From assembly GCA_040766105.1 (NCBI GenBank), contig JAXGRD010000005.1:138178-202177 (forward strand): a stretch of DNA of 64,000 nt. The letters run 5' to 3'. Of the stretch, positions 7,098 to 52,237 are shown one piece after another (within the stretch, counting starts at the first letter, position 1; each line of letters begins with the position of its first letter). Source of the DNA: Anaerovoracaceae bacterium. Its GTDB lineage: Bacteria; Bacillota; Clostridia; Peptostreptococcales; Anaerovoracaceae. The position numbers and the translations under genes are program-made. The notes under the pieces were generated by a model. The model ran no database searches and was not told the DNA's origin. It saw nothing but the letters and a program-made list of their open reading frames with translations.

Positions 7098-7157
7098 GAG
7101 TGGGATGAAGTAAAATAAAAATTAGTATTGGTGAATATAAATAGAAAGAAGGAAGTC

Positions 7158-8021: not shown

Positions 8022-8140
8022 TTGTGGAGGAGACCAACTATGAAAAGTCAAGGTAAATATGGATAAAAAAGAAATTCCATAGAGGGTTGATTTTGTGCAT
8101 GCTAAGCAGAACACCCTTAAGATGAACATTGAAAATCAAA

Positions 8141-9413: not shown

Positions 9414-9568
9414 AACGATTTAGACAAAACTGTGGCAATACACTCCTATCGAGAAGTCAAGCTTCAAGAAAAAATCAAAAGTCCACAGTGTAAGACAAAG
9501 TATATCAAAAAGATAAATAGAAAGGAGTGTATGGTGAAAAATGGTTAATTACACCATACAAGGAAAAA

Positions 9569-11245: not shown

Positions 11246-11257
11246 AGGAGTATAGCT

Positions 11258-13400: not shown

Positions 13401-13404
13401 GAAT

Positions 13405-35038: not shown

Positions 35039-36976
35039 ATGAGCACAATATTTTTTCTTATCGGGTTCCCCTTAATTGTTGCAATCGTTCTGTTATTGCT
35101 CAAAGCGGATGTGGCCAGAGATATTATTGTGAAGATTTCTGCAGCGGTTATCGCAGCGGCTTCCATCTATCTCGTGGTACAGCATTTCAACAGCGGAGGA
35201 CAATATTTTGATGTTCCGAAAGCGGCAACTATCGGCTATGTTATGATGGCCATTGAGGTGGTTCTCGCGATTATCATCATTGTTGTCGGCGTGATGAAAA
35301 AGCAGTACCTGGCTCCCATATTTGCGTTAATCCAGACACCACTATTGATCTGGTTTGAGATGGGCACGGGACATAGCATCGAAGTGGGATACAATGTCTA
35401 TGTAGATAGGCTATCCATGATTATGGTTTTGATCATCGGAATCATAGGTTCTCTCATTTGCGTCTACGCAATCGGGTACATGAAGGACTTCCAAAAGCAC
35501 CACAAGAGTGCGCCGGATCGAAGACCTTATTTCTTCTTCCTCATGTTCGTATTTTTATCAGCTATGTTCGGCTTGGTAATGTCAAACAACCTGGTTTGGA
35601 TGTACTTCTTCTGGGAGATCACTTCCCTCTGCTCGTTCTTCCTCATCGGCTACAACGGACTTTTCCACAAGAAAGAGAACGAGGACAAGGTGGCAACGAG
35701 AAACGCTTTCAGAGCCCTCGTCATGAACTTGGCCGGAGGACTGGGATTCGTCATCGGTATCATCACCCTTGGCACCACCTACGGTACACTGGAACTAAAC
35801 ACAATGTTGACCATCGGAACCATGGGATACAGCGTCGTAATACCTGCCATCTTCTTGGCATTTGCAGGAATCACCAAGGCGGCACAGATGCCGTTCAACA
35901 GCTGGCTGTTGGGAGCCATGGTAGCGCCTACACCTACGTCGGCACTGCTTCACTCTTCCACAATGGTTAAGGCGGGTGTCTTCCTGATTATCAAACTGGC
36001 ACCGGTTCTTGGAAACAATGTTGCAGGAATTATGGTAGCGCTGGTGGGAGGAATTACCTTCCTCTTGGCATCCTTTGCTGCCATCTCTCAGAGCAACGCA
36101 AAGAAGGTGCTGGCTTACTCCACCGTTGCCAACTTGGGACTCATCGTAGCCTGCGGCGGTATCGGCTCTGCGGAAGCGGTTTGGGCAGGAATCATGCTCA
36201 TCATCTTCCATGCAGTAACCAAGTCTCTTCTCTTCCTATGCGTAGGAACGGCGGAGCATAACATCGGAAGTAGAGATATTGAGGATATGGACGGCCTGTT
36301 CAACAGAATGCCAAGGCTTGCCAGCTTCATGCTCATAGGAATTGCAGGAATGTTCCTGGCACCCTTCGGCATGCTCATATCCAAGTGGGCGACCATGGTT
36401 GCCTTTGTGGATTCGGGCAATGTCATCTTGGTGGTGATTATCTGCTTCGGTAGTGCGGCGACAGCCTTCTACTGGACCAAATGGATGGGCAAGCTTTCTG
36501 CCATTATGGCGGGAAGAGAGGATATTCAAAAGAATGTTCATCGTGAAGAAACCGTAGTGCATATGATTTTGTCAGTGTTGACTGTAATCGTATGTCTGGG
36601 CTTCCCCTTCATCTCTAAGGCTATGGTCATCCCCTATCTGTCCGATACCTACGGAACAGTGGAAACCATGGCACTGTCTGAGAACAACATGATTATCATG
36701 GTTATCATGATAGCTGTACTGATTTTGCTCTTTGCATTCCTCTTCGGAAGAACTACAAAGAAAATCGTCCCCATCTACATGGCAGGTGTCAACACCGGCG
36801 ACGACTTGACCTTCATCAACTCCATGGAAGGCAAGACGGAAGTTTCCCTGAGAAACTGGTATATGGAAGGCTATTTCGGAGAGTTTAAGATGAATGTCAT
36901 CGGCGTGATTACCACGGGCATCGTAATTGTCGTTGCCATTGGAATGGTTGCCGGTGCAATGCTGGGAGGTATGTAA
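35039..36976 (+). CDS. echA: Ech-type hydrogenase membrane subunit A (NuoL/antiporter-like)
   Basis: 645-aa polytopic protein with the Mrp/NuoL-like core (AAQMPFNSWLLGAMVAPTPTSALLHSSTMVKAG). First gene of a six-gene group-4 hydrogenase set. Confidence 0.8.
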   Translation: MSTIFFLIGFPLIVAIVLLLLKADVARDIIVKISAAVIAAASIYLVVQHFNSGGQYFDVPKAATIGYVMMAIEVVLAIIIIVVGVMKKQYLAPIFALIQTPLLIWFEMGTGHSIEVGYNVYVDRLSMIMVLIIGIIGSLICVYAIGYMKDFQKHHKSAPDRRPYFFFLMFVFLSAMFGLVMSNNLVWMYFFWEITSLCSFFLIGYNGLFHKKENEDKVATRNAFRALVMNLAGGLGFVIGIITLGTTYGTLELNTMLTIGTMGYSVVIPAIFLAFAGITKAAQMPFNSWLLGAMVAPTPTSALLHSSTMVKAGVFLIIKLAPVLGNNVAGIMVALVGGITFLLASFAAISQSNAKKVLAYSTVANLGLIVACGGIGSAEAVWAGIMLIIFHAVTKSLLFLCVGTAEHNIGSRDIEDMDGLFNRMPRLASFMLIGIAGMFLAPFGMLISKWATMVAFVDSGNVILVVIICFGSAATAFYWTKWMGKLSAIMAGREDIQKNVHREETVVHMILSVLTVIVCLGFPFISKAMVIPYLSDTYGTVETMALSENNMIIMVIMIAVLILLFAFLFGRTTKKIVPIYMAGVNTGDDLTFINSMEGKTEVSLRNWYMEGYFGEFKMNVIGVITTGIVIVVAIGMVAGAMLGGM

Positions 36977-36977
36977 A

Positions 36978-37850
36978 ATGAATACTACAATCACAATCAT
37001 CATCAGTGTAGTTGCATATCTGATCCTGGCTCCCTTTATCGGTGGTCTGCTGGCAGGTATCGATCGAAGAATCACTGCGAGAATGCAGGGAAGATTCGGT
37101 CCTCCCATATTGCAGCCGTTCTATGACTTCTTGAAGCTGTGGGAAAAGGAAAACATTACGGTAAACAGAGTACAGGACTTCTACGTTTTCTGCTTCTTCA
37201 TCTTCATCGTCGTCACAGGTGCATTCTTCTTTGCGGGACTGAGCCTGTTGCTGGTCATCTTCACACTGACACTGGCAAGCGTGTTCCTCATCATAGCAGC
37301 CTTCTCCTCCAACTCTCCCTTTGCACAGGTAGGTGCGGAAAGAGAATTGTTGCAGATGCTGGCATACGAGCCTATGGTGCTGATCACAGCAATCGGATTC
37401 TACATGTACACAGGCAGCTTCGATGTAGGCGCTATCATGGGTGGTGAAAAAATGCCCCTCATATACCTCATCGGAATCTTCTTGGGATATATCTTCATTC
37501 TGACCATTAAGTTCAGAAAATCCCCCTTCGACCTGTCCATGTCCCATCACGGACACCAGGAACTGGTTGCGGGACTGAAGACCGAGTTTTCAGGCAGAAC
37601 CTTGGCCCTCATTGAAGCGGCACACTGGTTTGAAAACATATTCTTACTCGGATTCGTGTTCCTCTTCTTCATGAACGGAACCGTCTGGGGTATCGTTATA
37701 GGCGTAGTTGTTTGTCTTCTGACCTACTTCCTGGAAGTATTCATCGACAACAGCTTTGCAAGAATGAAGTGGCAGTTTGCAATCAATTCGGCGTGGGTCG
37801 TTGCGTTGGTTCTGGGAACTGTAAACCTGTTCATTCTGCTATATGTTTAA
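36978..37850 (+). CDS. echB: Ech hydrogenase membrane subunit B (NuoH-like)
   Basis: GGLLAGIDRRITARMQGRFGPPILQPFYDFLKL is a NuoH/HycD hallmark. ATG at 36978. Confidence 0.85.
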   Translation: MNTTITIIISVVAYLILAPFIGGLLAGIDRRITARMQGRFGPPILQPFYDFLKLWEKENITVNRVQDFYVFCFFIFIVVTGAFFFAGLSLLLVIFTLTLASVFLIIAAFSSNSPFAQVGAERELLQMLAYEPMVLITAIGFYMYTGSFDVGAIMGGEKMPLIYLIGIFLGYIFILTIKFRKSPFDLSMSHHGHQELVAGLKTEFSGRTLALIEAAHWFENIFLLGFVFLFFMNGTVWGIVIGVVVCLLTYFLEVFIDNSFARMKWQFAINSAWVVALVLGTVNLFILLYV

Positions 37851-37862
37851 GGAGGCAATCAC

Positions 37863-38318
37863 ATGGCATATGTAACAAAATCACCCTGGGTCATCCACTA
37901 TGACGGATCCAGCTGTAACGGTTGCGACATAGAAGTGTTGGCCTGCCTTACACCTATGTACGACGTAGAGCGGTTTGGAATTATCAACACCGGTAACCCC
38001 AAGCACGCAGATGTTTTTCTTGTCACCGGCTCCATCAACGAGCAGAACAAGAATGTTGTACAACAAATATATGAGCAAATGCCGGAACCAAAGGTAGTAG
38101 TAGCGATCGGAATCTGCGCCACCAACGGTGGAATCTTTAAAGAATGCTACAATATCATGGGCGGAACGGACACCGTAATTCCCGTGGACTGCTACGTTCC
38201 CGGCTGTGCTGCAAGACCGGAGGCCATCATTGACGGCGTCGTTAAGGGTCTTGGCATCTTGGCGGAAAAAAAGGCCAAGATGGATGCCGATAATAACCAG
38301 AAGGGAGCGGCGGTATGA
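37863..38318 (+). CDS. echC: Ech hydrogenase small subunit C (NuoB-like, one [4Fe-4S])
   Basis: SCNGCDIE ... GICATNGG ... PGCAARPE cysteine pattern. Confidence 0.85.
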   Translation: MAYVTKSPWVIHYDGSSCNGCDIEVLACLTPMYDVERFGIINTGNPKHADVFLVTGSINEQNKNVVQQIYEQMPEPKVVVAIGICATNGGIFKECYNIMGGTDTVIPVDCYVPGCAARPEAIIDGVVKGLGILAEKKAKMDADNNQKGAAV

Positions 38319-38671
38319 GCGAAAAGAAATTTCTAGTTCAGGACATACGATCAATACAGGGTTCTGAATTATTGGGTATTGTGCGTAACCTGCGACAGGA
38401 CGGCTATCGATTTGTCCAGGCATGTGCAACGGCGAAGGAAGAAGGCTATGAACTTCTGTACTCCTTCGACAAGGATCACGACCTCGTCAACTTCAGGATC
38501 CATGTGAATGAAGGCGATGAGTTGGAAAGCATCACGAAGGAATATTGGAGTGCCTTTATCTATGAAAACGAGTTGAATGACTTGTTCGGCATCAAGTTCC
38601 TTCACAACGCATTAGATTACGGCGGCAACTTCTACAAGGTTGCAGAGCCGACTCCATGGAAGAAGAAATAA
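38315..38671 (+). CDS. echD: Ech hydrogenase subunit D (NuoC-like)
   Basis: 118 aa. Called from its position between the small and large subunits and a NuoC-like YENELNDLFGI motif. Confidence 0.7.
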   Translation: MSEKKFLVQDIRSIQGSELLGIVRNLRQDGYRFVQACATAKEEGYELLYSFDKDHDLVNFRIHVNEGDELESITKEYWSAFIYENELNDLFGIKFLHNALDYGGNFYKVAEPTPWKKK

Positions 38672-38689
38672 GAAAGGAAGGTAGAAAAC

Positions 38690-39775
38690 ATGGGTAAAAG
38701 AACTATTATTCCTTTCGGACCACAACATCCGGTACTTCCCGAGCCGGTTCATTTGGACCTGGTCATCGAGGACGAGAAGGTTGTAGAAGCCATTCCCTCC
38801 ATTGGATTTATCCATAGAGGATTGGAAAAGTTGGTAGAAAAAAAGGAATATACCGAAATGGTATACGTTATAGAGCGAGTTTGCGGCATCTGCAGCTTCG
38901 GACACGGTTGGGGCTATTGCGCTGCCGTGGAAGGCGCAATGGGCATTGAGATTCCCAAGAGAGCGGAATATCTGCGAACCATTTGGCATGAATTGGGAAG
39001 AGCACATTCCAACATGCTGTGGTTGGGACTTTTGGCCGACGGATTTGGCTTTGAAAGCTTGTTCATGCATGTGTGGAAGCTGCGAGAGACCGTTCTGGAC
39101 CTCTTTGAAGAGACCACCGGGGGAAGAGTTATCTTCTCCGTGTGCAAGGTGGGTGGTGTAAGAAAAGACATCGACACTGCCACATTGAACAAGATGGTCA
39201 AGGAACTCAACGGTATTAAAAAAGAGCTGAAGGAGTTGACCGATGTCTTTATGGAAGACAAGTCCGTAAAGAACAGACTGTGTGGCGTAGGATATTTGTC
39301 CAAGGAAGACGCCATTGAATTGGACGCAGTCGGCGCCATGGCAAGAGCTTCCGGCGTTGTACAGGATATGCGTCTCAATGGTCACGGCATCTACGATGAA
39401 TTAAACTTTGAGCCTTGTGTGGAAACTGCCGGCGACTGTTATGCTCGTTGTGTCGTAAGAATCAGAGACATCTTCTTGGCTTTGGACATGATTGAAGAAG
39501 CGGTCAACAAGATTCCCGATGGACCCATCTCCGTTCCCGTTAAGGGCAACGTAACCGGTGAGTTCGTCATGAGGCTGGAGCAGCCCAGAGGAGAAGCGGT
39601 TTATTATGCAAAGGGATTCGACACGGGAACAAAGTTCCTGGAGAGAATGCGCGTCCGAACACCGACCAATCAGAACATTCCCGCCATGGTGAAGACCTTG
39701 CAGGGATGTGACCTGGCTGATGTTCCCATGCTCATACTGACTATCGACCCCTGTATCAGTTGTACAGAAAGGTAG
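38690..39775 (+). CDS. echE: Ech [NiFe] hydrogenase large subunit E (NuoD-like)
   Basis: N-terminal Ni-binding RVCGICSFGH and C-terminal DPCISCTER motifs. 361 aa. The stop codon is TAG. Confidence 0.9.
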   Translation: MGKRTIIPFGPQHPVLPEPVHLDLVIEDEKVVEAIPSIGFIHRGLEKLVEKKEYTEMVYVIERVCGICSFGHGWGYCAAVEGAMGIEIPKRAEYLRTIWHELGRAHSNMLWLGLLADGFGFESLFMHVWKLRETVLDLFEETTGGRVIFSVCKVGGVRKDIDTATLNKMVKELNGIKKELKELTDVFMEDKSVKNRLCGVGYLSKEDAIELDAVGAMARASGVVQDMRLNGHGIYDELNFEPCVETAGDCYARCVVRIRDIFLALDMIEEAVNKIPDGPISVPVKGNVTGEFVMRLEQPRGEAVYYAKGFDTGTKFLERMRVRTPTNQNIPAMVKTLQGCDLADVPMLILTIDPCISCTER

Positions 39776-39785
39776 GTGGAAAAGC

Positions 39786-40373
39786 ATGGCAAATTTTAAA
39801 ATCGGTAAGGTAGTAATGGGCAGCCTGTTTAAGAAGCCTGCCACCAAGATGTATCCTGTCATTCCTGCTGAATGGAAGGAAAGGACGAGAGGTCACATCC
39901 GCATCGAAGAAAAGGACTGCATCCTTTGCGGTATCTGCGGCAAGAAGTGTCCCACCAATGCCATTACGGTAGATCGAGGTGGGCGCACATGGACCATCGA
40001 GAGGATGCAGTGCATCCAATGTGGAGAGTGTGTTGCTGTCTGTCCCAAGAAGTGTCTGTTCATGGAACCGGATTACACGGAGCCAAGCACGGAAAAGGTA
40101 ATAGATACGGCCAACGTTCCGGAAGTGGAAAAGCCAAAGGCGACACCGGCGAAGAACGGGGAAGCAAAGGAAGCGGCACCTGCTGACGGAGACGAAAAGC
40201 TGAAATGCGACGAAGAAGTCTGCATATACTGCGGCATCTGCGTGAAGAACTGTCCCGTGGACGCTTTGGAAGTGGATCGAAAGGAAAAGATTTGGAAGGT
40301 AGATCATGACACCTGCACAACGTGCGGAATCTGCGTTGAGAAATGCCCCAAGGATTGCCTGGTGATTGAATAA
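39786..40373 (+). CDS. echF: Ech hydrogenase ferredoxin subunit F (NuoI-like) carrying four CxxCxxCxxxCP motifs
   Basis: CILCGICGKKCP, CIQCGECVAVCP, then a Pro/Lys/Ala/Glu linker, then CIYCGICVKNCP and CTTCGICVEKCP. Confidence 0.8.
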   Translation: MANFKIGKVVMGSLFKKPATKMYPVIPAEWKERTRGHIRIEEKDCILCGICGKKCPTNAITVDRGGRTWTIERMQCIQCGECVAVCPKKCLFMEPDYTEPSTEKVIDTANVPEVEKPKATPAKNGEAKEAAPADGDEKLKCDEEVCIYCGICVKNCPVDALEVDRKEKIWKVDHDTCTTCGICVEKCPKDCLVIE

Positions 40374-40387
40374 AATAACGGAAACTG

Positions 40388-40423
40388 CTGCTCCGCCTTG
40401 GATTGCCAGGGTGGAGCAGTTTG
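40388..40423 (+). terminator. weak terminator-like hairpin after echF
   Basis: CTGCTCCGCC-12 nt-GGTGGAGCAG followed by only TTT. Confidence 0.35.
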
Positions 40424-40437
40424 ATATTACAGGGGTG

Positions 40438-41532
40438 ATGATGGACGTTTTTGTCATTGTATTGGCAGCCTTTGCTGCCTTGGGATTTTTGGATAAAGCC
40501 ATAGGTGGTCGATTCGGTTTTGATAGGGAAATTGATAGCGGGCTTTCCACCATGGGCACCATGTCCGTATATATTGTGGGTATCTACTGTGTAGGAACCG
40601 TACTCATAGAGGGGAATTCCGAAACGATTGGAAATGCCACCTCCTTTTTGCCTATGGATCCCTCCATCCTCTCGGGAGGAATACTCGCCCCGGATTTGGG
40701 CGGCCAACCTATCGCCATGGGTTTGGCGGAAGATCGGGACATGGGCTTCTTTTCGGGGCTGGTCATCGGTGGTTGTCTGGGACAATTCGTTAGCTTTCAA
40801 CTTCCCGTCATCTTTGCCGTTCTCGATATGGAGACCAAACAGAAGATGGTCAGAGGATTTATCTATGGAATCATAGCAATTCCTGCAGGTCTGGTTGTGG
40901 GTGGCTTAGTCATGGGAATTCCACCGGGCAAGCTCTTTCTCAACATCAGCATCATCACTCTGATTTGCCTTGTCCTCCTCATGGGATTCCTCAAGGCGCC
41001 GAAACAAACGGAGAAGATCATTCTTACCTTTAGCAATATCATTAAATTCATTTGTCAAATCCTCTTCGTGATTGTCATTGCCGGTCTATTCATCCCCAAG
41101 CTGTCCTTTGTTCCCGGCGATTTGGTCCTCAATGCCCTTCTCATTGTCTTCCGCATGTCCATCATCGTCTGCGGTGGTTTGGTCCTTACGAGAATTCTCA
41201 CTATGTATTTCGGGAAGGCCTTTGACTACTTGGGTGAGAAGATGGGGACGGACAAGCTGGGCATAATCGGCCTCATGCTGAACATGATCAATAGCATAAC
41301 GGCCATTACCTTGTTTAGCAAGATGGATGACCGTGGGAAGATTATCAACGGGGCCATCTGTGTTAGCGGCGCATATATTCTGGGAGGTCAATTGGCCTTT
41401 GTCATCTCCGTTGCTCCTGCCTACGTTTTTTATGGCTATATTGCATCTAAAATTACTGCTGGAGGACTGGCACTGGCCATCGCTCTTCTCGGGGAGAGAA
41501 AAAGAAATTTGAATCAGTCTCCCCTTGTATGA
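40438..41532 (+). CDS. EutH-family (ethanolamine-permease-like) membrane protein
   Basis: Polytopic, about 365 aa. The N-terminal LGFLDKAIGGRFG and LAPDLGGQPIAMGLAED resemble EutH (LIAAVDRIL..FGG / LACDMGGFFLAKELA) as I remember it. The start is set at the ATG at 40438. Confidence 0.55.
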   Translation: MMDVFVIVLAAFAALGFLDKAIGGRFGFDREIDSGLSTMGTMSVYIVGIYCVGTVLIEGNSETIGNATSFLPMDPSILSGGILAPDLGGQPIAMGLAEDRDMGFFSGLVIGGCLGQFVSFQLPVIFAVLDMETKQKMVRGFIYGIIAIPAGLVVGGLVMGIPPGKLFLNISIITLICLVLLMGFLKAPKQTEKIILTFSNIIKFICQILFVIVIAGLFIPKLSFVPGDLVLNALLIVFRMSIIVCGGLVLTRILTMYFGKAFDYLGEKMGTDKLGIIGLMLNMINSITAITLFSKMDDRGKIINGAICVSGAYILGGQLAFVISVAPAYVFYGYIASKITAGGLALAIALLGERKRNLNQSPLV

Positions 41533-41569: not shown

Positions 41570-42958
41570 ATGGAAAAAAGAAAAGGGAAAGCGGAGCGGC
41601 AATACGAAGCAGACTTTTATAAAATCATGGCCGATAACTTCGGTGATGAAATTTTTGTGACCGACGGAAAGGGAATCACGATATTCGTCAATCCTGCGGC
41701 AGTGGAGGTCATTGGAAAACCTGTTACAGAAATCATCGGACGGCACGTAGACGACTTGGTTGAGGAAGGCTTCTTCAAGCCCAGTGTCACCATGGAGGTT
41801 CTTCGCCAGAGAAAGACCGTTTCCATTATCCAAAAGGTAAAGGAGGATAAGGCTGTTCTGGCAACGGGAGTCCCGATTTTCGGAGACGACCGAGAAAACA
41901 TCATCATGGTAATCAGCACCACAAAGGACGTGGATGCGCTAAATCACCTATTGGGAACCGTGGAATCTCAGCAGGAGGAAATCACCAACTTGCGAGACAA
42001 CGTGTTCTCTGAGGAGGGTTTTATCTCAGTGGACCATGGGATGAAAGAAATCAAGAATACCTTGGTAAAGATAGCCGACCTGGATATGGCAATCCTTGTA
42101 GAGGGAGAGACCGGTGTGGGGAAGGAAGTTGCGGTTCGGACCATTCATCACTTTGGGATTAACAGAAAGGGACCGCTTTTCAAGATAAACTGTGGGACAA
42201 TACCTGAAAATCTCATTGAATCGGAACTCTTTGGATATGAAGCCGGTGCGTTTACCGGTGCCGAGAGGAACGGGAAAAAAGGAAAGATCGAGATGGCCCA
42301 TGGGGGAACACTGTTTTTAGATGAAATTGGGGAGCTTCCGTTGAATTTGCAAGTCAAGCTCTTAGACTTCCTCCAGGAAGGGACTTTTACACGGGTGGGC
42401 GGTACCGAGCCGATAAAAATAAATGCGCGGGTGATTGCCGCCACCAACCGAGACCTTCGCAGGATGTGTGAAGAGGGCACTTTCCGAAAGGATTTGTACT
42501 ACCGCCTGAGCGTCATCCCTGTTCGAATTCCACCCCTTCGGGAACGACCGGATGACATCGATGCCTTGACTCGATACTTTGTTTCTCGGTACAACTCCAA
42601 ATACAGAAGCCACAAGGGAATCGATCCGGAGTTCTATGCCGTCGCCCGAAGCTACAGATGGCCGGGAAATATCCGTGAGTTGGAACATATGATTGAGAGA
42701 ATCTACGTGATGACGGAAGGCGAATTTATCAAGAAGGAGGATTTCGAGAAGATCATGCTAATGGAACACGAGGACCATCGCCAGGGCTCCAACGTAATCT
42801 GCATGGGAATCATGAACCTGAAAGAAGCGAAGTGGGAAGTGGAGAAACAATTGGTTCGTCATGCCTATCAAAAGGAGGGGAGTACCTATAAAGCTGCCAA
42901 GGTTTTGGGGGTGGATCAATCCACGGTGGTAAAGCTCTTAAAAAAGCACGAATCCTAG
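41570..42958 (+). CDS. sigma-54-dependent transcriptional activator (PAS - AAA+ - HTH), paralog 1
   Basis: GETGVGKE Walker A, ESELFGYEAGAFTGA (GAFTGA loop) and a C-terminal Fis-type HTH. The stop codon is TAG. Confidence 0.9.
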   Translation: MEKRKGKAERQYEADFYKIMADNFGDEIFVTDGKGITIFVNPAAVEVIGKPVTEIIGRHVDDLVEEGFFKPSVTMEVLRQRKTVSIIQKVKEDKAVLATGVPIFGDDRENIIMVISTTKDVDALNHLLGTVESQQEEITNLRDNVFSEEGFISVDHGMKEIKNTLVKIADLDMAILVEGETGVGKEVAVRTIHHFGINRKGPLFKINCGTIPENLIESELFGYEAGAFTGAERNGKKGKIEMAHGGTLFLDEIGELPLNLQVKLLDFLQEGTFTRVGGTEPIKINARVIAATNRDLRRMCEEGTFRKDLYYRLSVIPVRIPPLRERPDDIDALTRYFVSRYNSKYRSHKGIDPEFYAVARSYRWPGNIRELEHMIERIYVMTEGEFIKKEDFEKIMLMEHEDHRQGSNVICMGIMNLKEAKWEVEKQLVRHAYQKEGSTYKAAKVLGVDQSTVVKLLKKHES

Positions 42959-43086: not shown

Positions 43087-43102
43087 TGGCATTGATATTG
43101 CT
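43087..43102 (+). promoter_or_regulatory. sigma-54 (-24/-12) promoter TGGCAT-tgata-TTGCT
   Basis: GG-N10-GC spacing is exact. It lies 46 nt upstream of the corrinoid-protein ATG and directly downstream of a sigma-54 activator gene. Confidence 0.75.
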
Positions 43103-43147
43103 TAAGTAAAGGGCAGGAGTTATCATTTTTGTACAAAGGAGACAATA

Positions 43148-43801
43148 ATGGCAAGAGAAGATTTAATGAACAGAGCTTTCGAAGCAATCGTTGAAGCCGA
43201 TGAAGATATGGCTACCGAAGTGCTGGAAGAAGGCGAAAAGGAAGGAATCACTGCTGTAGAGCTGCTGCAGGAAGGATTCAGTAAGGGAATGAACGAGCTG
43301 GGTGACAGATTCGGTCGTGGAGAAGTTTTCCTTCCCGAATTGATCTTTGCAACAGAAGTCATGAAAGTCGTTACCGACAAGGTAGACGAAGAATTGGCTG
43401 CCAAGGGTGGCGAAGCAGAGGAAAAGGGCAAGATGATCATGGCGACCGTAGAAGGTGACGTTCACGATATCGGAAAAGGTATCTGCGTATCCATGCTGAA
43501 GTCTGTTGGCCTGGAAGTATATGACCTGGGACGTGAAGTACCTGCCGATGTCATCATCGAAAAGGCGAAGGAAGTCAACGCTGACATCATCGGAACTAGT
43601 GCTCTTCTCACCACCACAATGGTAGTGCAGAAGGAAATCGAAGAGAAGTTGGCTGCTCAGGACTTGAAGAAGGAGTTCAAGACCATGGTAGGTGGATCAC
43701 CGATTACACAGAGATGGGCTGACAAGATTGGTGCAGACGCTTACACCGAGGACGCGTCCGAGTGCTGCCAGAGAGCTCTGAAGTTTATTGATGAGAAATA
43801 A
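43148..43801 (+). CDS. mtbC: methyltransferase-cognate corrinoid (B12-binding) protein
   Basis: 217 aa. N-terminal helical cap plus a B12-binding domain with DVHDIGK (DxHxxG). The symbol is assigned only from adjacency to mtbB. Confidence 0.75.
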   Translation: MAREDLMNRAFEAIVEADEDMATEVLEEGEKEGITAVELLQEGFSKGMNELGDRFGRGEVFLPELIFATEVMKVVTDKVDEELAAKGGEAEEKGKMIMATVEGDVHDIGKGICVSMLKSVGLEVYDLGREVPADVIIEKAKEVNADIIGTSALLTTTMVVQKEIEEKLAAQDLKKEFKTMVGGSPITQRWADKIGADAYTEDASECCQRALKFIDEK

Positions 43802-43822: not shown

Positions 43823-45214
43823 ATGAGTGATAAAAAGTATTTCACCCGTATGGGCGACGGCGAAGCAACATGGATGACCAAAGACGAGCTGAAAGCTGAT
43901 GTTCTTGCCGGAATGGAAGACGCCGTAGTTAAGGGCAAGTCCCAGCCTATGAGCGACGAAGATGTTGAGCACATGATGGAAATCTTGACCATGCCCAACA
44001 AGCTGGTCAGTGTTGAGCCGGGTAATGAAGCCATCACCACATTTGACGCAGGAACCTTGAAGGCACCTGTACGATCCGGATTGCCGGTAGACAGAGGAAC
44101 GGACATCCTCATGCACGAGAGAGTGCTTTGTTCCGATTCCATGGAATTGTGTAACACAGACTACAGCTACAAAGCAATCAAGAATATCGCACCGGAAGAA
44201 GGAATGGCAATGGAGGCTGTACAGCAGCAGACCATCATTCCCCTATTCTACGGCGCAATGCCCAACATGGGATTATACACCAAGCCTGACGGCCCGGTAG
44301 ATAACTGGTCCATGCTCCTTCCCGAAGGGAAAATCAAGGAAGCTATGGCGGCACAGGAAGAAGCTGCAGAGCTGTGTGCGGCAGATATGATCTATATCGG
44401 CTCCATCATGGCAGAAGCAGGTGCTGACGGTATCCAGTTTGATACAGCGGGAGCATCGGGAGATGCCGACGCTTTGGCAGCTCTCAATGCCGCAAAGGCA
44501 TTGTCCGAGAAATATCCGGACCTTTGCATCACCATGGGTATGGCAAACGAGTTCCACTTGGGAATGCACGGCAGACTCAAGTTTGAAGGAGACAAGATTG
44601 CGGGACAGTATCCGGCAGCACAGGTAAAGACTTGTGAAAAGGCCGGCGTACACAGCTACGGTTGCGTAGTTAACACCAACAGCAGCAAGTCCTTTGCATG
44701 GAACCTGGCGAGAGCCACAACTTATGTACAGCAGGCTACAAGAGTAGCGAACATTCCTGTTCTGGTAGATGTAGGAATGGGTGTTGGCGGAATTCCTCTG
44801 ACCAACGTTTCACCTGTTGATGCTACTTCGAGAGTATCCAAGACCATGATTGAAATCGGCAAAGCCGACGGATTGTAGATAGGTCACGGAGATACATTCG
44901 GAATGGCTGCCATTCACGAAGCTGCTGCCGGAATGGGCGGCGTACGAGCTGCCGGAGATCTGGTTGCACGTATGGTCTTCAAGGGAATGAAGCTAAACGA
45001 AGCAAAAGAATATGTCGCAGGAAAACTGGGATGCAGTACAATGGATTTGTCTGATGAGGCTGCCATGAAGGAGATCAGGGAAACTCTGGATATCGGTCAC
45101 ATCATCATCACTCCTCATGCATCTTACGGAATGGCTGCAAAGATTAAGATTGCAGAACTGCTGGACATCACTATTCCTAGCGTTGAGATGTTTAAGAAAC
45201 GTGTAGGTATCTAA
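43823..45214 (+). CDS. mtbB: dimethylamine:corrinoid methyltransferase with an in-frame TAG (pyrrolysine codon) at 44876-44878
   Basis: The track ORFs 43823-44878 and 44903-45214 share a frame and are joined by TAG-ATA-GGT-CAC-GGA-GAT-ACA-TTC-GGA. The combined 463 aa is colinear with Methanosarcina MtbB (PLFYGAMPNMGLY, GADGIQFDTAGASGD, MGMGVGGIP, RAAGDLVARM). Confidence 0.85.
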
Positions 45215-45322: not shown

Positions 45323-46894
45323 ATGGAAAATAACAATTTAGGGAAAAAACAAAAGAAATTTGATGTTCCGCAAATCGTTGTCAGCTGTGCCGTCTTGTTT
45401 GCCTTCGTTGCATTTATGGCGATTAAGCCGGAGATGACACTGAATGCGGTTAACAGTTCCTTTGACTGGCTCATCAAATACTTTGGTTCCATGTTGCTCA
45501 TCTTTACCTTTACAGCTGTTATTATATCGGTATATTTTTGCTTAAGCGGTAAATACGGCAACATCAAATTAGGAGATGCCGAGCCCGAATACAACATGTT
45601 CAGTTATGTGGCCATGATGACCCTTGCTGCTGTTGCATCTGCACTGCTCTACTGGTCATTTACTGAGTGGGCATACTACTATGTGTCCCCGGGAATTGGA
45701 ATCGAGCCGGAATCCATACAGGCGGCGGAGGCTTCATTGGGTTACGCTTTCTTCCACTGGGGTATTTCCGGGCAAGCCATCTACGTGGTCATCGCCTTGG
45801 CACTATCCTATGCTTACTACATCAGAAAGGTGCCGGAACTGCAGACCAGTGCTATCTGTGTTGAGATGATGGGAGACAGATTGAACCCTACCGCCAGAAC
45901 CGGTCTGGGCAAGGTCATTGACTTCGTCGTTATCTTTGGAATCGTTGGTGGTCTTGGATGTTCTTTGGGTCTGGCAGTGCCTCTGGCCGGCGGCGCTTTG
46001 ACTCAACTCTTCGGAATTGACGTCACCTTCCCCATTCAGGTGGGCATCGTACTGTTCATCGCAGCGGTATTCACCTTTACATCCTTTATCGGAACGAAAA
46101 AAGGAATGAAGAACTTGAGTAACGGGTCGGTTATCTTGGCAGGCGTATTCCTGCTTTGGATCTTCTTGACAGGACCTACGGACTTTATCATGAAGAATAC
46201 AGCAAACTCCTTTGGATGGATGTTGGAAATCTTCCCAAGAGCTAGTCTCTTTACCGATCCCATTGCCGATACAGGCTTCCCGGAATCATGGACTCTGTAC
46301 TTCCAGGCATTCTACCTGAACTACGGTGCCATGATGGGAATCTTCATTACCAAAATCTCCAAGGGCAGAACCATCAGACAGCTCTCCATTGCATCCCTCA
46401 TCGGAATCAGTGTGGGCGGTTGGTTGGTGTTTGCTATAGATGGCAGTTTCTCCATCTACTCCCATGTGAACGGATTGACAGACGTTGTAGAGTTAGTAAA
46501 CAGTAACGTAGGAGAAGCCGGAATCTATCAGGTTCTTGAACTCTTGCCCGGCGGCGCAGTATTCCTTCCTGCTTTGGTGTTAATCATCATGGTTGGATTT
46601 GTGGCATCCTCTTTGGACTCCGCTTCCCTTTCGCTGTCACAGACGACCCAGCCCATACCGGAAAAAGACGGCAATGTCAACAGATGGCTTCGTGTGTTCT
46701 GGTGTATCGTATTGACGCTGGTACCACTGTCCATCATGTTTGTAGAAGCAAACTTCTCGATTCTAAAAATATTTTCAATCGTTGTATCCATACCGTTTAT
46801 GTTCGTGGTCATCTTCCTGATGTACAACTTCTTCAGATGGCTGAAGGAAGATGAGAGAGCAGGCAAATTGGACAATATCGGTTTGAAAAAATAA
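45323..46894 (+). CDS. BCCT-family (betaine/carnitine/choline-type) transporter
   Basis: 12-TM profile and BCCT signature ...WTLYFQAFYLNYGAMMGIFITKISKGRTIRQL. The ATG at 45323 lies behind AGGAGG. Confidence 0.8.
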   Translation: MENNNLGKKQKKFDVPQIVVSCAVLFAFVAFMAIKPEMTLNAVNSSFDWLIKYFGSMLLIFTFTAVIISVYFCLSGKYGNIKLGDAEPEYNMFSYVAMMTLAAVASALLYWSFTEWAYYYVSPGIGIEPESIQAAEASLGYAFFHWGISGQAIYVVIALALSYAYYIRKVPELQTSAICVEMMGDRLNPTARTGLGKVIDFVVIFGIVGGLGCSLGLAVPLAGGALTQLFGIDVTFPIQVGIVLFIAAVFTFTSFIGTKKGMKNLSNGSVILAGVFLLWIFLTGPTDFIMKNTANSFGWMLEIFPRASLFTDPIADTGFPESWTLYFQAFYLNYGAMMGIFITKISKGRTIRQLSIASLIGISVGGWLVFAIDGSFSIYSHVNGLTDVVELVNSNVGEAGIYQVLELLPGGAVFLPALVLIIMVGFVASSLDSASLSLSQTTQPIPEKDGNVNRWLRVFWCIVLTLVPLSIMFVEANFSILKIFSIVVSIPFMFVVIFLMYNFFRWLKEDERAGKLDNIGLKK

Positions 46895-46996: not shown

Positions 46997-48424
46997 ATGG
47001 AGAAAGAAAACCAAAAAAACTTTGATAACCTATCGGAAATCGTCCTTATTGAAGACCCTGTTGGCAACATTAAATATGTCAATAAGGCTTTTTGCGATTG
47101 TCACGGTGTTTCTCAAGAAGAGGCTATAGGAAGAAGTTGCTTCGACTTCATCATTCCCGAAGACCGTGAGCGGTGCACCATGCACAATGTGGTCACGCCT
47201 GAAAATTCCAGTTATCGAATCGAAGGAAGGTCTAAAAGGGTCGATGGCAAGATCATTTGGATTCAATATGTGGGAAAGGCTTTCTTCTCCGAAGAAGGAG
47301 AACTTCTTGAATTCCAGGAGTTGGGTGTGGACATCACCCAATGGAAGGAAAAGATTGCCGAAAAGACAAAGGAGCTGGAAAAGGCCAATGAACAGCTAAA
47401 CAGACCTAAAATTTCGGTAGCGGAGACCAAGGTTTCCGGTGGTAAGAATAGTAGCCGCAGAAATGCAGCCATATATAAGTTTTCCGACATTATTACGGCA
47501 AATCCCAAACTTATCGGTCAGAAGACTTATGCGGAAGCGGTAGCCGACGGAGAGTGTTCGGTCCTCATTGAAGGGGAAAGCGGCACCGGCAAGGAGTTGT
47601 TTGCCCAAGCCATCCATAACGGCAGCCGGCGAGTCAACGGTCCCTTCGTAGCGGTGAACTGTGGTGCCATTCCAACAGAGCTAATCAGCAGTGAGTTCTT
47701 TGGCTATGAGGAGGGGGCATTTACGGGAGCGGCAAGAGGCGGCAAGGCGGGAAAGTTTGAGCAGGCCTCGGGAGGAACTCTTTTTCTCGATGAAATCGGA
47801 GAAATGCCCATGGCGCAGCAGGTGGCACTTCTCAGGGTATTGGAGACAAAGTCGGTTACCAGGGTAGGGGGAAATAAAGAAATTCCCATAGATATTCGCA
47901 TTGTCTGTGCCACCAACAGGGACTTACTGGATGAAATCAACCAAAACCGCTTCAGGCGGGACCTGTACTATCGATTGAATATCATCAATATAAAGATCCC
48001 ACCCTTGCGGCAGAGGCGAGAAGATATATACTTGCTCATAGGATACTTCATCAAAAGGTTCGGAAGCAATTCCTTTGCCAAGAGGGCGGCCTTCAGCGAT
48101 GAACAGCTCATTCGACTTTACAACTATGACTGGCCGGGGAATGTGAGAGAATTACAAAACGCAGTAGAGAGGATGCGCTTTCGACCGGAAGAGACGGTAG
48201 ACGAGATCTTGGGAACCATGCAAAGTCAAACTTTGGGAGTGGATAAAAAAACAAAAGGGGAATTGAAAGACAAAGGAAAAATCGGGGAACAAGAAGCCTT
48301 GGAAGAAGCCTTGGAGTTGTGTGAGGGTAACATCAGTATGGTGGCCAGAAAATTAGGAATCTCACGGAAAACCGTATATAAGCGCATGGAGAAATACCAT
48401 ATCCAAGGTGGACAAAAACTGTAA
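46997..48424 (+). CDS. sigma-54-dependent transcriptional activator (PAS - AAA+ - HTH), paralog 2
   Basis: GESGTGKE, SSEFFGYEEGAFTGA and a C-terminal HTH. Confidence 0.9.
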   Translation: MEKENQKNFDNLSEIVLIEDPVGNIKYVNKAFCDCHGVSQEEAIGRSCFDFIIPEDRERCTMHNVVTPENSSYRIEGRSKRVDGKIIWIQYVGKAFFSEEGELLEFQELGVDITQWKEKIAEKTKELEKANEQLNRPKISVAETKVSGGKNSSRRNAAIYKFSDIITANPKLIGQKTYAEAVADGECSVLIEGESGTGKELFAQAIHNGSRRVNGPFVAVNCGAIPTELISSEFFGYEEGAFTGAARGGKAGKFEQASGGTLFLDEIGEMPMAQQVALLRVLETKSVTRVGGNKEIPIDIRIVCATNRDLLDEINQNRFRRDLYYRLNIINIKIPPLRQRREDIYLLIGYFIKRFGSNSFAKRAAFSDEQLIRLYNYDWPGNVRELQNAVERMRFRPEETVDEILGTMQSQTLGVDKKTKGELKDKGKIGEQEALEEALELCEGNISMVARKLGISRKTVYKRMEKYHIQGGQKL

Positions 48425-48518: not shown

Positions 48519-48534
48519 TGGCACAGAAGTTGCT
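48519..48534 (+). promoter_or_regulatory. sigma-54 promoter TGGCAC-agaag-TTGCT (consensus)
   Basis: Perfect TGGCAC-N5-TTGC, 55 nt upstream of the mttB ATG. Confidence 0.85.
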
Positions 48535-48588: not shown

Positions 48589-50067
48589 ATGGCAAAACGA
48601 AAAAAATCAACAGTTGGCGCATTGGATAATTTGAAGTGTGCCAATTCCTATGGGAATAAACTTACAGATGATGAACTTTACGCGATTCATGCAGCAAGTC
48701 TGGAAGTTCTGGCTGAAATCGGAATCAAGGTGGAAAGCAAGAAAGCGCAAAAGATATTTGCTGACGGCGGTGCCACCATTGATGGTGACTTTGTAAGAAT
48801 TCCTCCTTCCTTGGTGGAAGAATGCATCCGCACGGCTCCTTCCGTGATTAAATTGGCAGGCAGAAACCCCAAGAACGATTACATTATCAAGCAAAAGAAA
48901 GTAGCGTTTATCAACTTTGGCGAGGGGGTCAATGTAATCGATCCCTATACAAAGGAATACAGAAGGTCCACCAAGGAAGACCTGGGTCGCAACACTAAGG
49001 TTGCCGACTCCCTAAAGGTGCTTCCCGTTGCCTATCGATCTGTTGCTGCGCAAGATAAGCCGGGTGCAGTACAGGCGCTTCACAATATGGAAGTCATGTT
49101 TCACAACACATCCAAGCATATTTTTATCGGACCCGATGGTGCGGTAAATGCGTCGAAAATTATCGACATGGCCGCATTTATCATGGGCGGCAAGGACGTT
49201 CTTCGGGAGAGACCCATTGTGACATTTAACGTTTGTCCCACCAGCCCTCTCCAACTGAACCCCACGGCGGCAGATACCATTATCGTCGGTGCGGAACATG
49301 GAATCCCCAGCAATGTTATATCCATGGCACTGGCAGGGGCAACCGGACCGGTTACCATGGCCGGCGTCTTGGTTACACACAATGCAGAGGTTCTTTCTGC
49401 TGTGGTTCTTTCCCAGCTGACCAAAAAGGGCGCACCGGTACTGTACGGTAGTTCTACATCCATGATGGACATGCGCCACCTCACTACGCCGGTAGGGGCA
49501 CCGGAATTGGCAATGATCAGCAACGCCGTTGCACAGTTGTCCCAGTACTATCTGCTACCAAGTTTCGTAGCCGGTGGTTAGGCAGACAGCAAGTTACCCG
49601 ATGCACAGGCTGCTCACGAAAAGACCTTAACCGCTATGATGGCTGCCCAGGGCGGCGCCAACCTGATATACGGTGCAGGAATGATCGAACTGGGCATGAC
49701 CTTCGACCTTGCCCAACTGATTATCGACTCAGAAATCTACAAGATGGTATTGCATACTGTAAAGGGATTTGAAGTCAATGAAGAAACGTTGGCTCTTGAT
49801 GTAATCAAGGAGATTAAAACAGGAGAATTCGTTTCTCATCCTCATACAGTGACCAACTTTAAGGACATCCAGTCTCACTCCAACGTGATCAACCGACAGT
49901 CGAGAGAAGCTTGGCTGGCAGGCGGATCCAAGGATATGACAACGGTTGCCTACGAAAAAGCAATAGATATTCTTGAAAATTACACGCCGGATCCCCTTAC
50001 GGATGAACAGGCAGAATATATCAAAAAAATCGTGGAAGATGCGGAAGAGGAATACGGAGTGAAGTAA
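48589..50067 (+). CDS. mttB: trimethylamine:corrinoid methyltransferase with an in-frame TAG (pyrrolysine codon) at 49579-49581
   Basis: The track ORFs 48511-49581 and 49636-50067 share a frame. The junction reads ..[28 protein letters not shown].., matching ..LPSYVAGS-Pyl-SDAKVPDDQAGHEKTMT.. of Methanosarcina MttB as I recall it. The ATG at 48589 (MAKRKK) lies behind GGGAGG. Confidence 0.85.
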
Positions 50068-50078
50068 AGGAGAAAATC

Positions 50079-50711
50079 ATGAGCAAGGTATTAAGAAATC
50101 TTAGAGAAGCCATTGAAGACGGCGACATGGATGAAGTGGTGGAGCTGGTTCAGGAAGCATTGGATGACGAAGTCCCCGCCCAAGAAATCCTCAACGACGG
50201 CCTCATTGAAGGGATGAACGAAGTGGGAGATATGTTTAAGGATGGAGAAATGTACGTTCCTGAAGTACTCATGTCGGCCAATGCCATGGATGCGGGGATG
50301 GAAATTCTCAAACCCTACCTGAAGGAAGGGGATGTGAAGAAAGTTGGGAAGGTGGTATTCTGCACTGTAAAAGGAGACCTTCACGATATCGGAAAGAAGC
50401 TCTGCGTCATGATGATGGAAGGCGGCGGCTTTGATGTAGTGGACTTAGGTGTAGATGTAGGTGTTGAAGATATCATGGCGGCAGTGGAAGATCATCAGCC
50501 CAATATTCTGGCAATGTCTGCCATGTTAACCACGACGATGGTTACCATGGACGAGGCAGTAAATGCACTGGAGGAAGCGGGAAAAGATGACATAAAGGTG
50601 ATGGTAGGGGGCGCACCTTTGTCGGGAGATTATGCAGAAAATATTTCTGCCAACTATTCCGAAGATGCCATTGCCGCTGTCGCTTTAGCAAACAAACTTT
50701 TGGGAAACTGA
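50079..50711 (+). CDS. mttC: methyltransferase-cognate corrinoid (B12-binding) protein
   Basis: 210 aa with DLHDIGK (DxHxxG). The symbol comes from adjacency to mttB. Confidence 0.75.
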   Translation: MSKVLRNLREAIEDGDMDEVVELVQEALDDEVPAQEILNDGLIEGMNEVGDMFKDGEMYVPEVLMSANAMDAGMEILKPYLKEGDVKKVGKVVFCTVKGDLHDIGKKLCVMMMEGGGFDVVDLGVDVGVEDIMAAVEDHQPNILAMSAMLTTTMVTMDEAVNALEEAGKDDIKVMVGGAPLSGDYAENISANYSEDAIAAVALANKLLGN

Positions 50712-50824: not shown

Positions 50825-52237
50825 ATGATGGAACACAAAGATGAAAAGATGGATATTCTTTTTAAGGTTATGGACAACGAAAATGACGTGACCTTAACAG
50901 ACGGAAAGGGTGTTGTCATCAGAATCAGTGATTCCTACGAAAAGCACTACAATGTTTCAAAAGATGAAGTGATAGGAAAGTCCATTTGGGAATTGGAAGA
51001 TGTGGGCATATTTAAACCCTCCGTCACCGCCATCGTGCTGGAGAAGAAGTGCAAGGCGACTATATTGCAGAAGAACATGATGGGGGAAAGCATTCTCACT
51101 ACAGGAGTTCCCATTTTTGATGATGAAGGAGAAATTGAATATGTGATCAGCTTCAATTCCATTGACATCGCCAACATGAATTCCCTTCAAGAAAAGTACA
51201 ATAAACTAACGGAATTAATGCAAGCATACAACGAAGAAATCAATGCTCTCAGGATGGAGGAAATCAAGGACAAGGAATTGGTCACCAAAAGCAACCACAT
51301 GGAGAAGATTAAAACATTGGTAGACCAAGTTGCCGACACCCATGCAAACATCTTGATAACAGGAGAAACGGGTGTGGGGAAGAGCATGATTGCAAAAATT
51401 GTCCACCAAAAGAGTGGAAGGGTGGACGGCCCGTTTGTGGAAATCAACTGCGGTACCATACATGAAAACCTAATCGAATCAGAACTCTTTGGCTACGAGA
51501 AGGGGGCCTTTACGGGAGCCAACGAAAAGGGAAAGATGGGCAAGATAGAACTTGCCAACGGTGGCACTCTTTTCCTGGATGAAATCGGGGAACTTTCCTT
51601 GGGCATGCAGATGAAACTGCTGCAGGCGATACAGGAAAAAGAAATTACCCGCGTAGGAGGGCTGAATAAAATCAAGGTGGATTTTCGCCTCATTGCAGCC
51701 ACCAATCGAGATTTAAAGAAGCGAATCAAGGAGAATCTTTTCCGAGAAGATCTATACTATCGATTGAACGTGATCCCCATCTCTATTCATCCCTTGCGAG
51801 ATCGCCCCGATGATATTCGCCCCTTGGTGGAGAACTTTTTGGTTCGTGCCAATGGAAAGTACAACCGAAATGTGACGATCCAAGAAGAGGCAATTGCCTT
51901 ACTGGAAAAGCATAGCTGGCCCGGAAATATAAGGCAAGTGGAGAACTTAGTGGAACGTCTGGTCATCATGTCCGTAGGTGACTTGGTTACGGCTTCCGAT
52001 CTTCCCACAGAAATCCGATATGGTGGAAGAAGCCATTACGGCATTGGCGAAACGGACTCACTGAAAGAGATACTGGAGAGCGTGGAAAAGCAGATTGTGA
52101 AAGAAGCCTACGAAAAAGGGGGAACCAGTATTGCCGTAGGGAAAACCTTGAAAATCAGCCAAGCGACCGCTGCAAGGAAGTTGCGTAAATACATTCCCGG
52201 ATATGCGGAACAGCCCAAGAAAGAGGGTAGTCAATAA
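50825..52237 (+). CDS. sigma-54-dependent transcriptional activator (PAS - AAA+ - HTH), paralog 3
   Basis: GETGVGKS, ESELFGYEKGAFTGA and a C-terminal HTH. Confidence 0.9.
   Translation: MMEHKDEKMDILFKVMDNENDVTLTDGKGVVIRISDSYEKHYNVSKDEVIGKSIWELEDVGIFKPSVTAIVLEKKCKATILQKNMMGESILTTGVPIFDDEGEIEYVISFNSIDIANMNSLQEKYNKLTELMQAYNEEINALRMEEIKDKELVTKSNHMEKIKTLVDQVADTHANILITGETGVGKSMIAKIVHQKSGRVDGPFVEINCGTIHENLIESELFGYEKGAFTGANEKGKMGKIELANGGTLFLDEIGELSLGMQMKLLQAIQEKEITRVGGLNKIKVDFRLIAATNRDLKKRIKENLFREDLYYRLNVIPISIHPLRDRPDDIRPLVENFLVRANGKYNRNVTIQEEAIALLEKHSWPGNIRQVENLVERLVIMSVGDLVTASDLPTEIRYGGRSHYGIGETDSLKEILESVEKQIVKEAYEKGGTSIAVGKTLKISQATAARKLRKYIPGYAEQPKKEGSQ

Follow-up and report, generated by a model that had tools for sequence, protein, structure and literature searches.

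A putative pyrrolysine-type mtbB with a conserved in-frame UAG in a sigma-54-type methylamine operon of an Anaerovoracaceae bacterium

The gene at 43823–45214 of a 64,000-nucleotide (nt) stretch of DNA from an Anaerovoracaceae bacterium (contig JAXGRD010000005.1; the whole stretch is referred to as the window) is most probably a functional mtbB of the pyrrolysine (Pyl) type. It would encode the dimethylamine:corrinoid methyltransferase of an Anaerovoracaceae-type Firmicute, with UAG codon 352 read as pyrrolysine, and would be expressed in a sigma-54-controlled methylamine operon; we place the probability of this reading at roughly 0.88. The gene is intact, belongs to the dimethylamine methyltransferase family, shares the UAG and the codons downstream of it with its relatives, and lies in an operon with a recognizable promoter layout. 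Insertion of pyrrolysine in the source organism is likely, because two intact genes of the Pyl type are present, purifying selection continues past the TAG, and the lineage owns a Pyl system. The specificity for dimethylamine and the route of the methyl group downstream are proposed from sequence comparison. The gene and its codon are as follows.

43823..45214, plus strand: mtbB, predicted dimethylamine:corrinoid methyltransferase of 463 amino acids with a single in-frame UAG (PF09505, TIGR02368, purifying selection past the UAG).
44876..44878, plus strand: UAG codon 352, predicted pyrrolysine codon (same column in relatives, five assemblies).

The mtbB frame comprises 464 codons, with one internal TAG at 44876–44878 (codon 352) and a terminal TAA at 45212–45214, and the joined product has 351 + 1 + 111 = 463 residues. 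An AGGAGG ribosome-binding site lies 8 nt 5′ of the ATG. The original prediction, made from the letters of the DNA, described a gene split in two by the TAG, and this is what is found: the open reading frames 43823..44878 (351 amino acids, ending at the TAG) and 44903..45214 (103 amino acids) share the same frame, and the 24 nt between them (44879–44902) read IGHGDTFG, free of further stops. A peptide starting KADGL-O, where O is pyrrolysine, had also been proposed as a target for mass spectrometry. In this peptide the K precedes ADGL, and the tryptic peptide would start at A unless cleavage is missed there; the fully tryptic peptide expected from mtbB is ADGL-O-IGHGDTFGMAAIHEAAAGMGGVR (ADGL-O-IGHGD...GGVR).

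An error of sequencing or assembly at 44876–44878, which the original prediction had named as a way in which it might fail, would reduce the TAG to an artefact. Five public, independently assembled contigs (L003 and L005–L008) from different sequencing runs are 99.6–100% identical to the window here, and all have the TAG. One of the five contigs is present in at least 20 samples, and every relative has the same codon. No supporting point for an error was found, and its chance is practically negligible. Separately, five independent Logan contigs break at 44879–44881, where the k-mer is probably common to co-occurring variants.

For protein searches, the joined product was given a placeholder residue at the TAG. 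PF09505 (Dimeth_Pyl) gives one match that runs across the TAG, from residue 5 to 459 and covering profile positions 2–462 of 463, with 569.2 bits (cutoff 25) and E = 7.6e-171. The NCBIfam equivalog TIGR02368 ([dimethylamine--corrinoid protein] Co-methyltransferase) is passed with 460.7 bits against a cutoff of 369.1. The identification of the gene as mtbB is thereby borne out over the whole length of the joined protein. The end-to-end colinearity with methanogen MtbB that had been claimed is likewise seen in a multiple alignment with full-length Methanosarcina-type sequences. In this alignment the TAG falls on residue 356 of Methanosarcina-type MtbB within the shared motif DG-x-[Pyl]-IG-x-GD, which agrees with the placement of codon 352 close to Pyl356 in the original prediction; residue 356 is the number given in that prediction for the pyrrolysine of Methanosarcina barkeri MtbB.

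Relatives were collected by a scan of one genome per species, which yielded 47 loci of 49–88% identity, 46 of them covering the TAG site. Almost all belong to the Anaerovoracaceae or 'Family XIII' Clostridia (Anaerovorax, Sinanaerobacter, Emergencia, Ihubacter). All 46 covering loci have a single internal stop, a TAG that shares the alignment column of the TAG in the window and has about 112 codons behind it; the relatives sharing it fall in two deep clades. The same TAG and motif recur in three more distant Firmicute lineages, Ca. (Candidatus) Formimonas warabiya, Syntrophaceticus and Desulfosporosinus. The combination of an in-frame TAG and a full-length family match is far beyond chance, since one Pfam match spans the TAG and all 46 loci have it in one column. 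Compared with the closest relatives, amino acid identity is 87–90% past the TAG (111 codons) and 88% before it (351 codons). The ratio of nonsynonymous to synonymous substitution rates (dN/dS) past the TAG is about 0.04–0.11, with dS above 1, that is, at synonymous sites that are nearly saturated. No dead 3′ remnant would remain so well conserved, and for this reason the region past the UAG is, on the evidence of its codons, translated and under purifying selection.

The protein search returned 1022 homologues, of which 120 were listed. Among these 120, nearly all entries are about 350 amino acids long and end at the position of the TAG in the window. The earlier description of bacterial Pyl-dependent dimethylamine methyltransferases as rare is therefore overstated in view of the 1022 homologues and of the 47 species-level genomes among close relatives alone. 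One homologue, P0082 from the metagenome-assembled genome GCA_016278615.1, is full length (466 amino acids), 51% identical and of the same Pfam family; its gene (L058 10001-11401, contig JADQBM010000005.1) carries a real sense codon, TTG (Leu), at the TAG column, as checked in the DNA. No corrinoid protein is adjacent to it, its neighbourhood is unrelated, and an HTH-cupin regulator lies upstream. By its codons, P0082 is a non-Pyl member of the Dimeth_Pyl family. Two more full-length entries with Q at the Pyl column, P0085 and P0118, were considered as sense-codon members and set aside: the Q most likely represents a TAG translated under another code, since the flanking motif of P0085 is that of the TAG-bearing loci L035 and L037.

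The cassette in which mtbB lies consists of the following neighbouring features.

41570..42958, plus strand: sigma-54-dependent activator with PAS sensor, AAA+ and helix-turn-helix (HTH) domains (Sigma54_activat 219 bits, AAA_lid_14, PAS_9, HTH_50).
43087..43102, plus strand: sigma-54 -24/-12 element TGGCATTGATATTGCT (TGGCAT-N5-TTGCT), 45 nt before the corrinoid gene start (pattern match).
43148..43801, plus strand: corrinoid (B12-binding) protein, MtbC-like, presumed methyl acceptor of MtbB (Pfam B12-binding_2, B12-binding).
45323..46894, plus strand: BCCT-family transporter, 3′ of mtbB (Pfam BCCT 369 bits, NCBIfam BCCT models).

The original prediction had placed mtbB after the gene of its corrinoid protein and behind a sigma-54 promoter, and both elements are there. 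The element at 43087 differs from TGGCAC-N5-TTGCW by one mismatch, has the GG-N10-GC spacing, and sits between the activator gene and the operon. Of 33 related loci, 12 have TGGCA[CT]-N5-TTGC[AT] at the corresponding place; the background frequency of this pattern is 0.014 per kb on each strand. A PAS/sigma-54 activator also adjoins mtbB in other Firmicute loci. A scan for sigma-70 promoters and terminators was uninformative, its results being close to those of shuffles. The corrinoid gene stops 21 nt before the mtbB ATG, and its architecture and position fit the MtbC type. For the BCCT gene, the start at 45323 was picked from the ribosome-binding site, while the mechanical open reading frame starts at 45221. 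This gene occupies the same position in L009–L013 and lies near mtbB in Ca. Formimonas warabiya. Gene order in the closest relatives, L009–L011, is as in the window.

A second cassette follows directly.

46997..48424, plus strand: second PAS/sigma-54 activator, 5′ of the mttB-mttC operon (Sigma54_activat 230 bits, PAS, HTH_8).
48519..48534, plus strand: perfect sigma-54 -24/-12 element TGGCACAGAAGTTGCT (TGGCAC-N5-TTGCT), 55 nt before mttB (pattern match).
48589..50067, plus strand: mttB, predicted trimethylamine:corrinoid methyltransferase of 492 amino acids with an in-frame UAG at 49579-49581 (Pfam MTTB on both halves).
50079..50711, plus strand: second corrinoid protein, MttC-like (Pfam B12-binding_2, B12-binding).

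The mttB product exceeds the equivalog TIGR02369 with 656 bits against a cutoff of 525, and mttB is the second pyrrolysine-type gene of the window. Its TAG at the Pyl position is kept in relatives within the motif GG*ADSK (GG-O-ADSK).

Several results weigh against pyrrolysine insertion into a dimethylamine methyltransferase at this locus. The 64-kb window holds no pylT, pylS or pylBCD, and ARAGORN reports zero transfer RNA (tRNA) genes in it. Searches of the window by tblastn with PylB, PylC and PylSc of a related locus (L013, described below) and by blastn with 11 pylT sequences (family consensus GGGGnGCGGATCGnATnGATCnCAnnGACTCTAAAT) gave no match, and no large open reading frame in the window has matching Pfam domains of the Pyl machinery. 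Neither the MtaA-like methylcobamide methyltransferase nor the RamA-type activase that flank mtbB in relatives has a match in the window, and none of the top 120 PylB homologues could be tied to the source contig. TAG is moreover an ordinary terminator here: the 50 supported genes of the window end in TAA (23), TGA (16) or TAG (11, or 22%). The corrinoid protein scores 212.3 bits where TIGR02370 (pyl_corrinoid) asks for 215.3, and 206.8 where the MtbC equivalog asks for 350. Finally, the substrate is read from homology; searches of the literature yielded neither an assay of a bacterial MtbB nor a paper on the biochemistry of such an enzyme, in keeping with the earlier remark that these enzymes are essentially uncharacterised biochemically.

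Absence of the pyl genes from the window has to be viewed beside their arrangement in relatives. Of the 47 related loci, 27 have a tRNA-Pyl(CUA) recognised by ARAGORN no further than 10 kb from mtbB. L013, whose MtbB is 75% identical, carries in one locus mtbB, BCCT, an MtaA-like methyltransferase, a RamA-like activase, pylT, pylB, pylC and pylSc, with PylB, PylC and PylSc each above equivalog cutoffs; L066 and L068 have a similar layout with pylD added (pylB-pylC-pylSc-pylD). The three closest relatives, L009–L011 (85–88% identity), also lack pylT within 10 kb, and a remote pyl cluster is therefore normal in this sub-clade.

If the TAG were a true stop, the locus would be a pseudogene or would produce a truncated protein of 351 residues, and the downstream frame would be a decaying remnant. 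The use of TAG to end 22% of window genes, the lack of visible pyl genes and the 351-amino-acid product reported by database gene callers speak for such a stop. A decaying remnant would, however, have gained stops and frameshifts, whereas the 111 codons past the TAG are as conserved as the first 351, with the low dN/dS given above at near-saturated synonymous sites, and the TAG column is common to all 46 relatives of both deep clades and to three other Firmicute lineages. A true stop is accordingly highly improbable. Alternatively, the Pyl machinery may have been lost, with the UAG suppressed by a near-cognate or other suppressor tRNA without pyrrolysine, or the cassette may be a recent transfer that cannot be expressed. 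This would account for a window without pylTSBCD and without the RamA-type activase and second methyltransferase that are adjacent in many relatives, and for the lack of a PylB linked to the source contig; the family relative L058, with its Leu codon and no corrinoid neighbour, also lends it some support. Yet L009–L011 have no nearby pylT either, a distant cluster being the rule in their sub-clade, and mtbB and mttB are both intact, while long-term loss should bring decay or sense codons. Such a loss is very unlikely, though somewhat less so than a true stop, and decoding of UAG 352 as pyrrolysine by a machinery encoded elsewhere in the genome is the preferred reading.

Because TAG is also a common terminator, decoding of the UAG as pyrrolysine must, as in other bacteria that use pyrrolysine, be partial, regulated, or dependent on context or site. 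Acetohalobium arabaticum reportedly does both, keeping UAG as a normal stop while inserting pyrrolysine into methylamine methyltransferases, according to work by Prat and colleagues from 2012. One ordinary TAG in the window stands between two genes of the same frame: the SMC gene (26195-29743) ends in TAG in frame with ftsY (29756-30658), with no other stop between, and read-through would fuse both. The surroundings of the UAG in mtbB contain two RNA features.

44876..44975, plus strand: match to Rfam RF02509 (PYLIS_2, 'pyrrolysine insertion sequence mtbB'), starting at the UAG (54.3 bits, gathering threshold 36).
44950..44965, plus strand: small conserved messenger RNA hairpin in the mtbB coding region, 74-89 nt past the U of the UAG (covariation, RNAalifold).

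A match to Rfam PYLIS_3 (89 bits) likewise starts exactly at the mttB UAG. The PYLIS_2 score stems largely from coding-sequence conservation, because the larger helix 1 of the model is unsupported in the clade: 51.8% of cells are paired, which is the level of shuffles, and most pairs are non-canonical in the window. The small hairpin corresponds to the core of PYLIS_2 helix 2. Family members form 6 bp, whereas the window, with U-U at the outer pair, forms 5 bp; 96.5% of cells are paired across 33 bacterial mtbB sequences. Two of its pairs covary at synonymous third positions (AU 14 and UA 14 in one; CG 23, UA 6, AU 2 and UG 2 in the other). The observed values were reached by 0 of 500 shuffles, slid controls lie far lower, and RNAalifold predicts the same hairpin independently.

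Synonymous sites around the UAG are constrained as well, in statistics that are drawn from sequences related to one another. The 9 codons centred on the UAG (44861–44887, codons 347–355) are the least variable of the entire gene at synonymous sites, with an observed/expected ratio of 0.43 against a median of 0.91 in 48 sequences, and a second dip in the same set lies over the hairpin. In a set of 45 sequences, 40 encode Leu just ahead of the UAG, and all 40 use TTG for it, a codon that accounts for only 14.5% of the Leu codons of these genes; just 2 of 199 conserved columns show no synonymous variation at all. A general rule for the codon preceding a pyrrolysine UAG was considered and rejected: the codon before the mttB UAG (Gly/Thr) varies freely, and Desulfosporosinus mtbB has TTA.

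The UAG context and the hairpin constitute a real constraint at the RNA level, not a demonstrated insertion signal. The preceding TTG, the minimum of synonymous variability at the UAG and the covarying hairpin suggest that the context might act as a bacterial recoding signal favouring Pyl-tRNA over release factor 1 at this site. We regard this as a doubtful proposal, and the position of the hairpin, about 75 nt past the UAG and out of reach of a ribosome paused there, weighs against a role as insertion signal. If true, it would provide a functional pyrrolysine signal comparable to the selenocysteine insertion sequence (SECIS) in bacteria whose UAG still terminates about one fifth of genes. The RNA-level conservation near the UAG is the only element here that goes past routine annotation, and it bears on how pyrrolysine may be inserted site-specifically where UAG is a stop.

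A pathway can be proposed for the two cassettes. Transcription of the operon of corrinoid protein, mtbB and BCCT transporter would start from the sigma-54 promoter, turned on by the adjacent PAS-domain activator. UAG 352 would be decoded as pyrrolysine by tRNA-Pyl and PylS encoded outside the window, giving the 463-residue enzyme. By analogy with the characterised archaeal enzyme, the pyrrolysine may bind and activate dimethylamine, after which one methyl group would pass to the Co(I) corrinoid of the protein encoded at 43148–43801 with release of monomethylamine. The parallel cassette 3 kb downstream, with its own activator, sigma-54 promoter, Pyl-type mttB and corrinoid protein, would make dimethylamine from trimethylamine. 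The methyl group would presumably be transferred to tetrahydrofolate through a methylcobamide methyltransferase encoded elsewhere in the genome, and could then enter the folate one-carbon pathway, whose genes MTHFR, FTHFS, FchA and FolD lie upstream in the same window at 7128–12744. These genes and the Ech-type genes described below would fit an oxidation of methyl groups via tetrahydrofolate.

A Pyl-containing enzyme of the MtbB family may instead act on some other amine, secondary or tertiary, that the adjacent transporter brings in. BCCT transporters typically carry quaternary amines (betaine, carnitine, choline), many members of the MttB superfamily use quaternary amines and not trimethylamine (PMC8604678, PMC12155760), and identity to archaeal MtbB is only about 48%. 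On the other hand, the score lies above the curated cutoff of the dimethylamine methyltransferase equivalog, the substrate-shifted MttB members are Pyl-less while the MtbB of the window keeps the Pyl codon and its flanking motif, and the gene has as its companion a Pyl-type mttB, the enzyme of which would release dimethylamine. Another substrate is unlikely on this balance, and dimethylamine is retained as the predicted one.

The fold of the enzyme was approached through a model; a sequence search of the PDB found no solved structure of any MtbB. The AlphaFold model of the full-length homologue P0085, which is 50% identical to the MtbB of the window, has a mean predicted local distance difference test (pLDDT) value of 85 and a predicted template modelling (pTM) score of 0.89. 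Foldseek against the PDB returned no close structural relative of this model, and found only remote (beta-alpha)8 barrels with TM-scores up to about 0.56, among them BHMT, the homocysteine-binding module of MetH, and HisF. The model has a TIM-barrel-like (beta-alpha) fold with the Pyl-equivalent residue, 353, in a beta-strand (351–354). Catalytic residues of TIM-barrel enzymes usually lie at the C-terminal ends of strands. Structural work on MtbB was still ongoing according to PMC9842639.

Other observations concern the corrinoid protein and the remaining genes of the window. The corrinoid protein encoded before mtbB is 100% identical in L001, L002 (GCA_964421655.1) and L004, where the DNA (43127–43800) is 96–97% identical, with all differences synonymous, and where an MGDG-synthase gene follows in place of mtbB. 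The copy before the MGDG-synthase gene could be a paralogue or the arrangement of another strain. GCA_964421655.1 was considered as a proxy genome and dropped, on account of the other context of its corrinoid gene and the 3% synonymous divergence of the DNA. Downstream of the second cassette lies a third paralogous PAS/sigma-54 activator (50825-52237) with an element at 52418, so that 11 kb contain three such activators, each with a -24/-12 element and an operon behind it. The third of these operons begins with a GABA-type aminotransferase (52487-53839) and is therefore not a methylamine operon. Among the folate genes, an IS110-family transposase (8154-9317, minus strand) stands between the MTHFR gene and the FTHFS-FchA-FolD genes. 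A cluster resembling Ech/Mbh-type membrane-bound [NiFe] hydrogenases (35039-40373) contains antiporter-like, NuoH-like, large-subunit and 4Fe-4S protein genes, and an EutH-family permease (40366-41532) lies between this cluster and the methylamine cassettes. Lar-like genes occur in two separate places, 12741-14037 and 56119-57381, and comprise LarB-like (AIR carboxylase family), LarC-like (nickel insertion) and LarA-like (lactate racemase family) genes. A 630-amino-acid open reading frame (57765-59657) between a Rieske ferredoxin gene and a PFOR gene has no Pfam or NCBIfam match.

The locus adds one more uncultured Anaerovoracaceae-type bacterium to those in which pyrrolysine enzymes are predicted to remove methyl groups from trimethylamine and dimethylamine, a trait of importance for the turnover of methylamines in guts and anoxic habitats. 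Automatic annotation routinely overlooks such a capacity because the genes are split at the TAG. It is also a clean case of the bacterial layout, with two sigma-54-controlled cassettes for mttB and mtbB, and a candidate source from which a bacterial MtbB could be studied for the first time, biochemically or structurally, given that the PDB search found no MtbB structure.

Among known systems, the reference is MtbB of M. barkeri, a Pyl-containing dimethylamine:corrinoid methyltransferase (Paul, Ferguson and Krzycki 2000, as cited in PMC9842639). The protein of the window resembles it in its membership of PF09505/TIGR02368, full-length colinearity, the UAG in the same column, the motif DG-x-O-IG-x-GD and a small B12-binding partner. 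The two are only about 48% identical, and the setting differs: the host of the window is bacterial, with tetrahydrofolate and not coenzyme M as the presumed final methyl acceptor, transcription is predicted to start at a sigma-54 promoter that has its own PAS activator, mtbB comes after the corrinoid gene, and TAG is a common stop. Closer are the MtbB proteins of Ca. Formimonas warabiya (DCMF, PMC6778437), Syntrophaceticus schinkii and Desulfosporosinus, which are 59–64% identical and share the TAG in the motif KADGL-O-IGHGD. These three Firmicutes also have, as the window does, a PAS/sigma-54 activator, a -24/-12 element, a corrinoid protein and a Pyl-type mttB, with a BCCT gene in Formimonas; unlike the window, they have mtbB before the corrinoid gene and an adjacent pterin-binding methyltransferase, of which the window has none.

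The family of the closest relatives offers a different arrangement. Pyl-type mttB has been inventoried in gut Emergencia and a novel Anaerovoracaceae genus (PMC10653893), and the Anaerovoracaceae/Emergencia clusters unite TAG-bearing mttB and mtbB, a corrinoid protein, MtaA-like and RamA-like genes and a pyl cluster in one locus. Emergencia-type MtbB is 50–53% identical to that of the window, and the sigma-54 element is absent there; in contrast to these clusters, the window and its three nearest relatives have no pyl genes within 10 kb. At the RNA level, RF02509 PYLIS_2 is a predicted mtbB pyrrolysine insertion sequence derived from PMC3639795. Its second hairpin is kept and covaries in bacteria, whereas its larger first helix is not formed in the window or its relatives. 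Acetohalobium arabaticum, a bacterium with trimethylamine-dependent decoding of pyrrolysine (cited in PMC7593587), is a Firmicute of a different order and supplies the best precedent for a regulated, substrate-dependent recoding of UAG. Pyl-type methylamine methyltransferases are known in the genomes of Olavius symbionts, Desulfitobacterium, Acetohalobium, Bilophila and Ca. Formimonas (PMC1976440, PMC3639795, PMC7593587, PMC6778437), and Pyl-type mtbB or mttB has been described before in bacterial genomes (PMC6778437, PMC10653893). Pyl-type mtbB is common in Firmicute genomes, with curated protein and RNA models, and the locus of the window is a further example of it.

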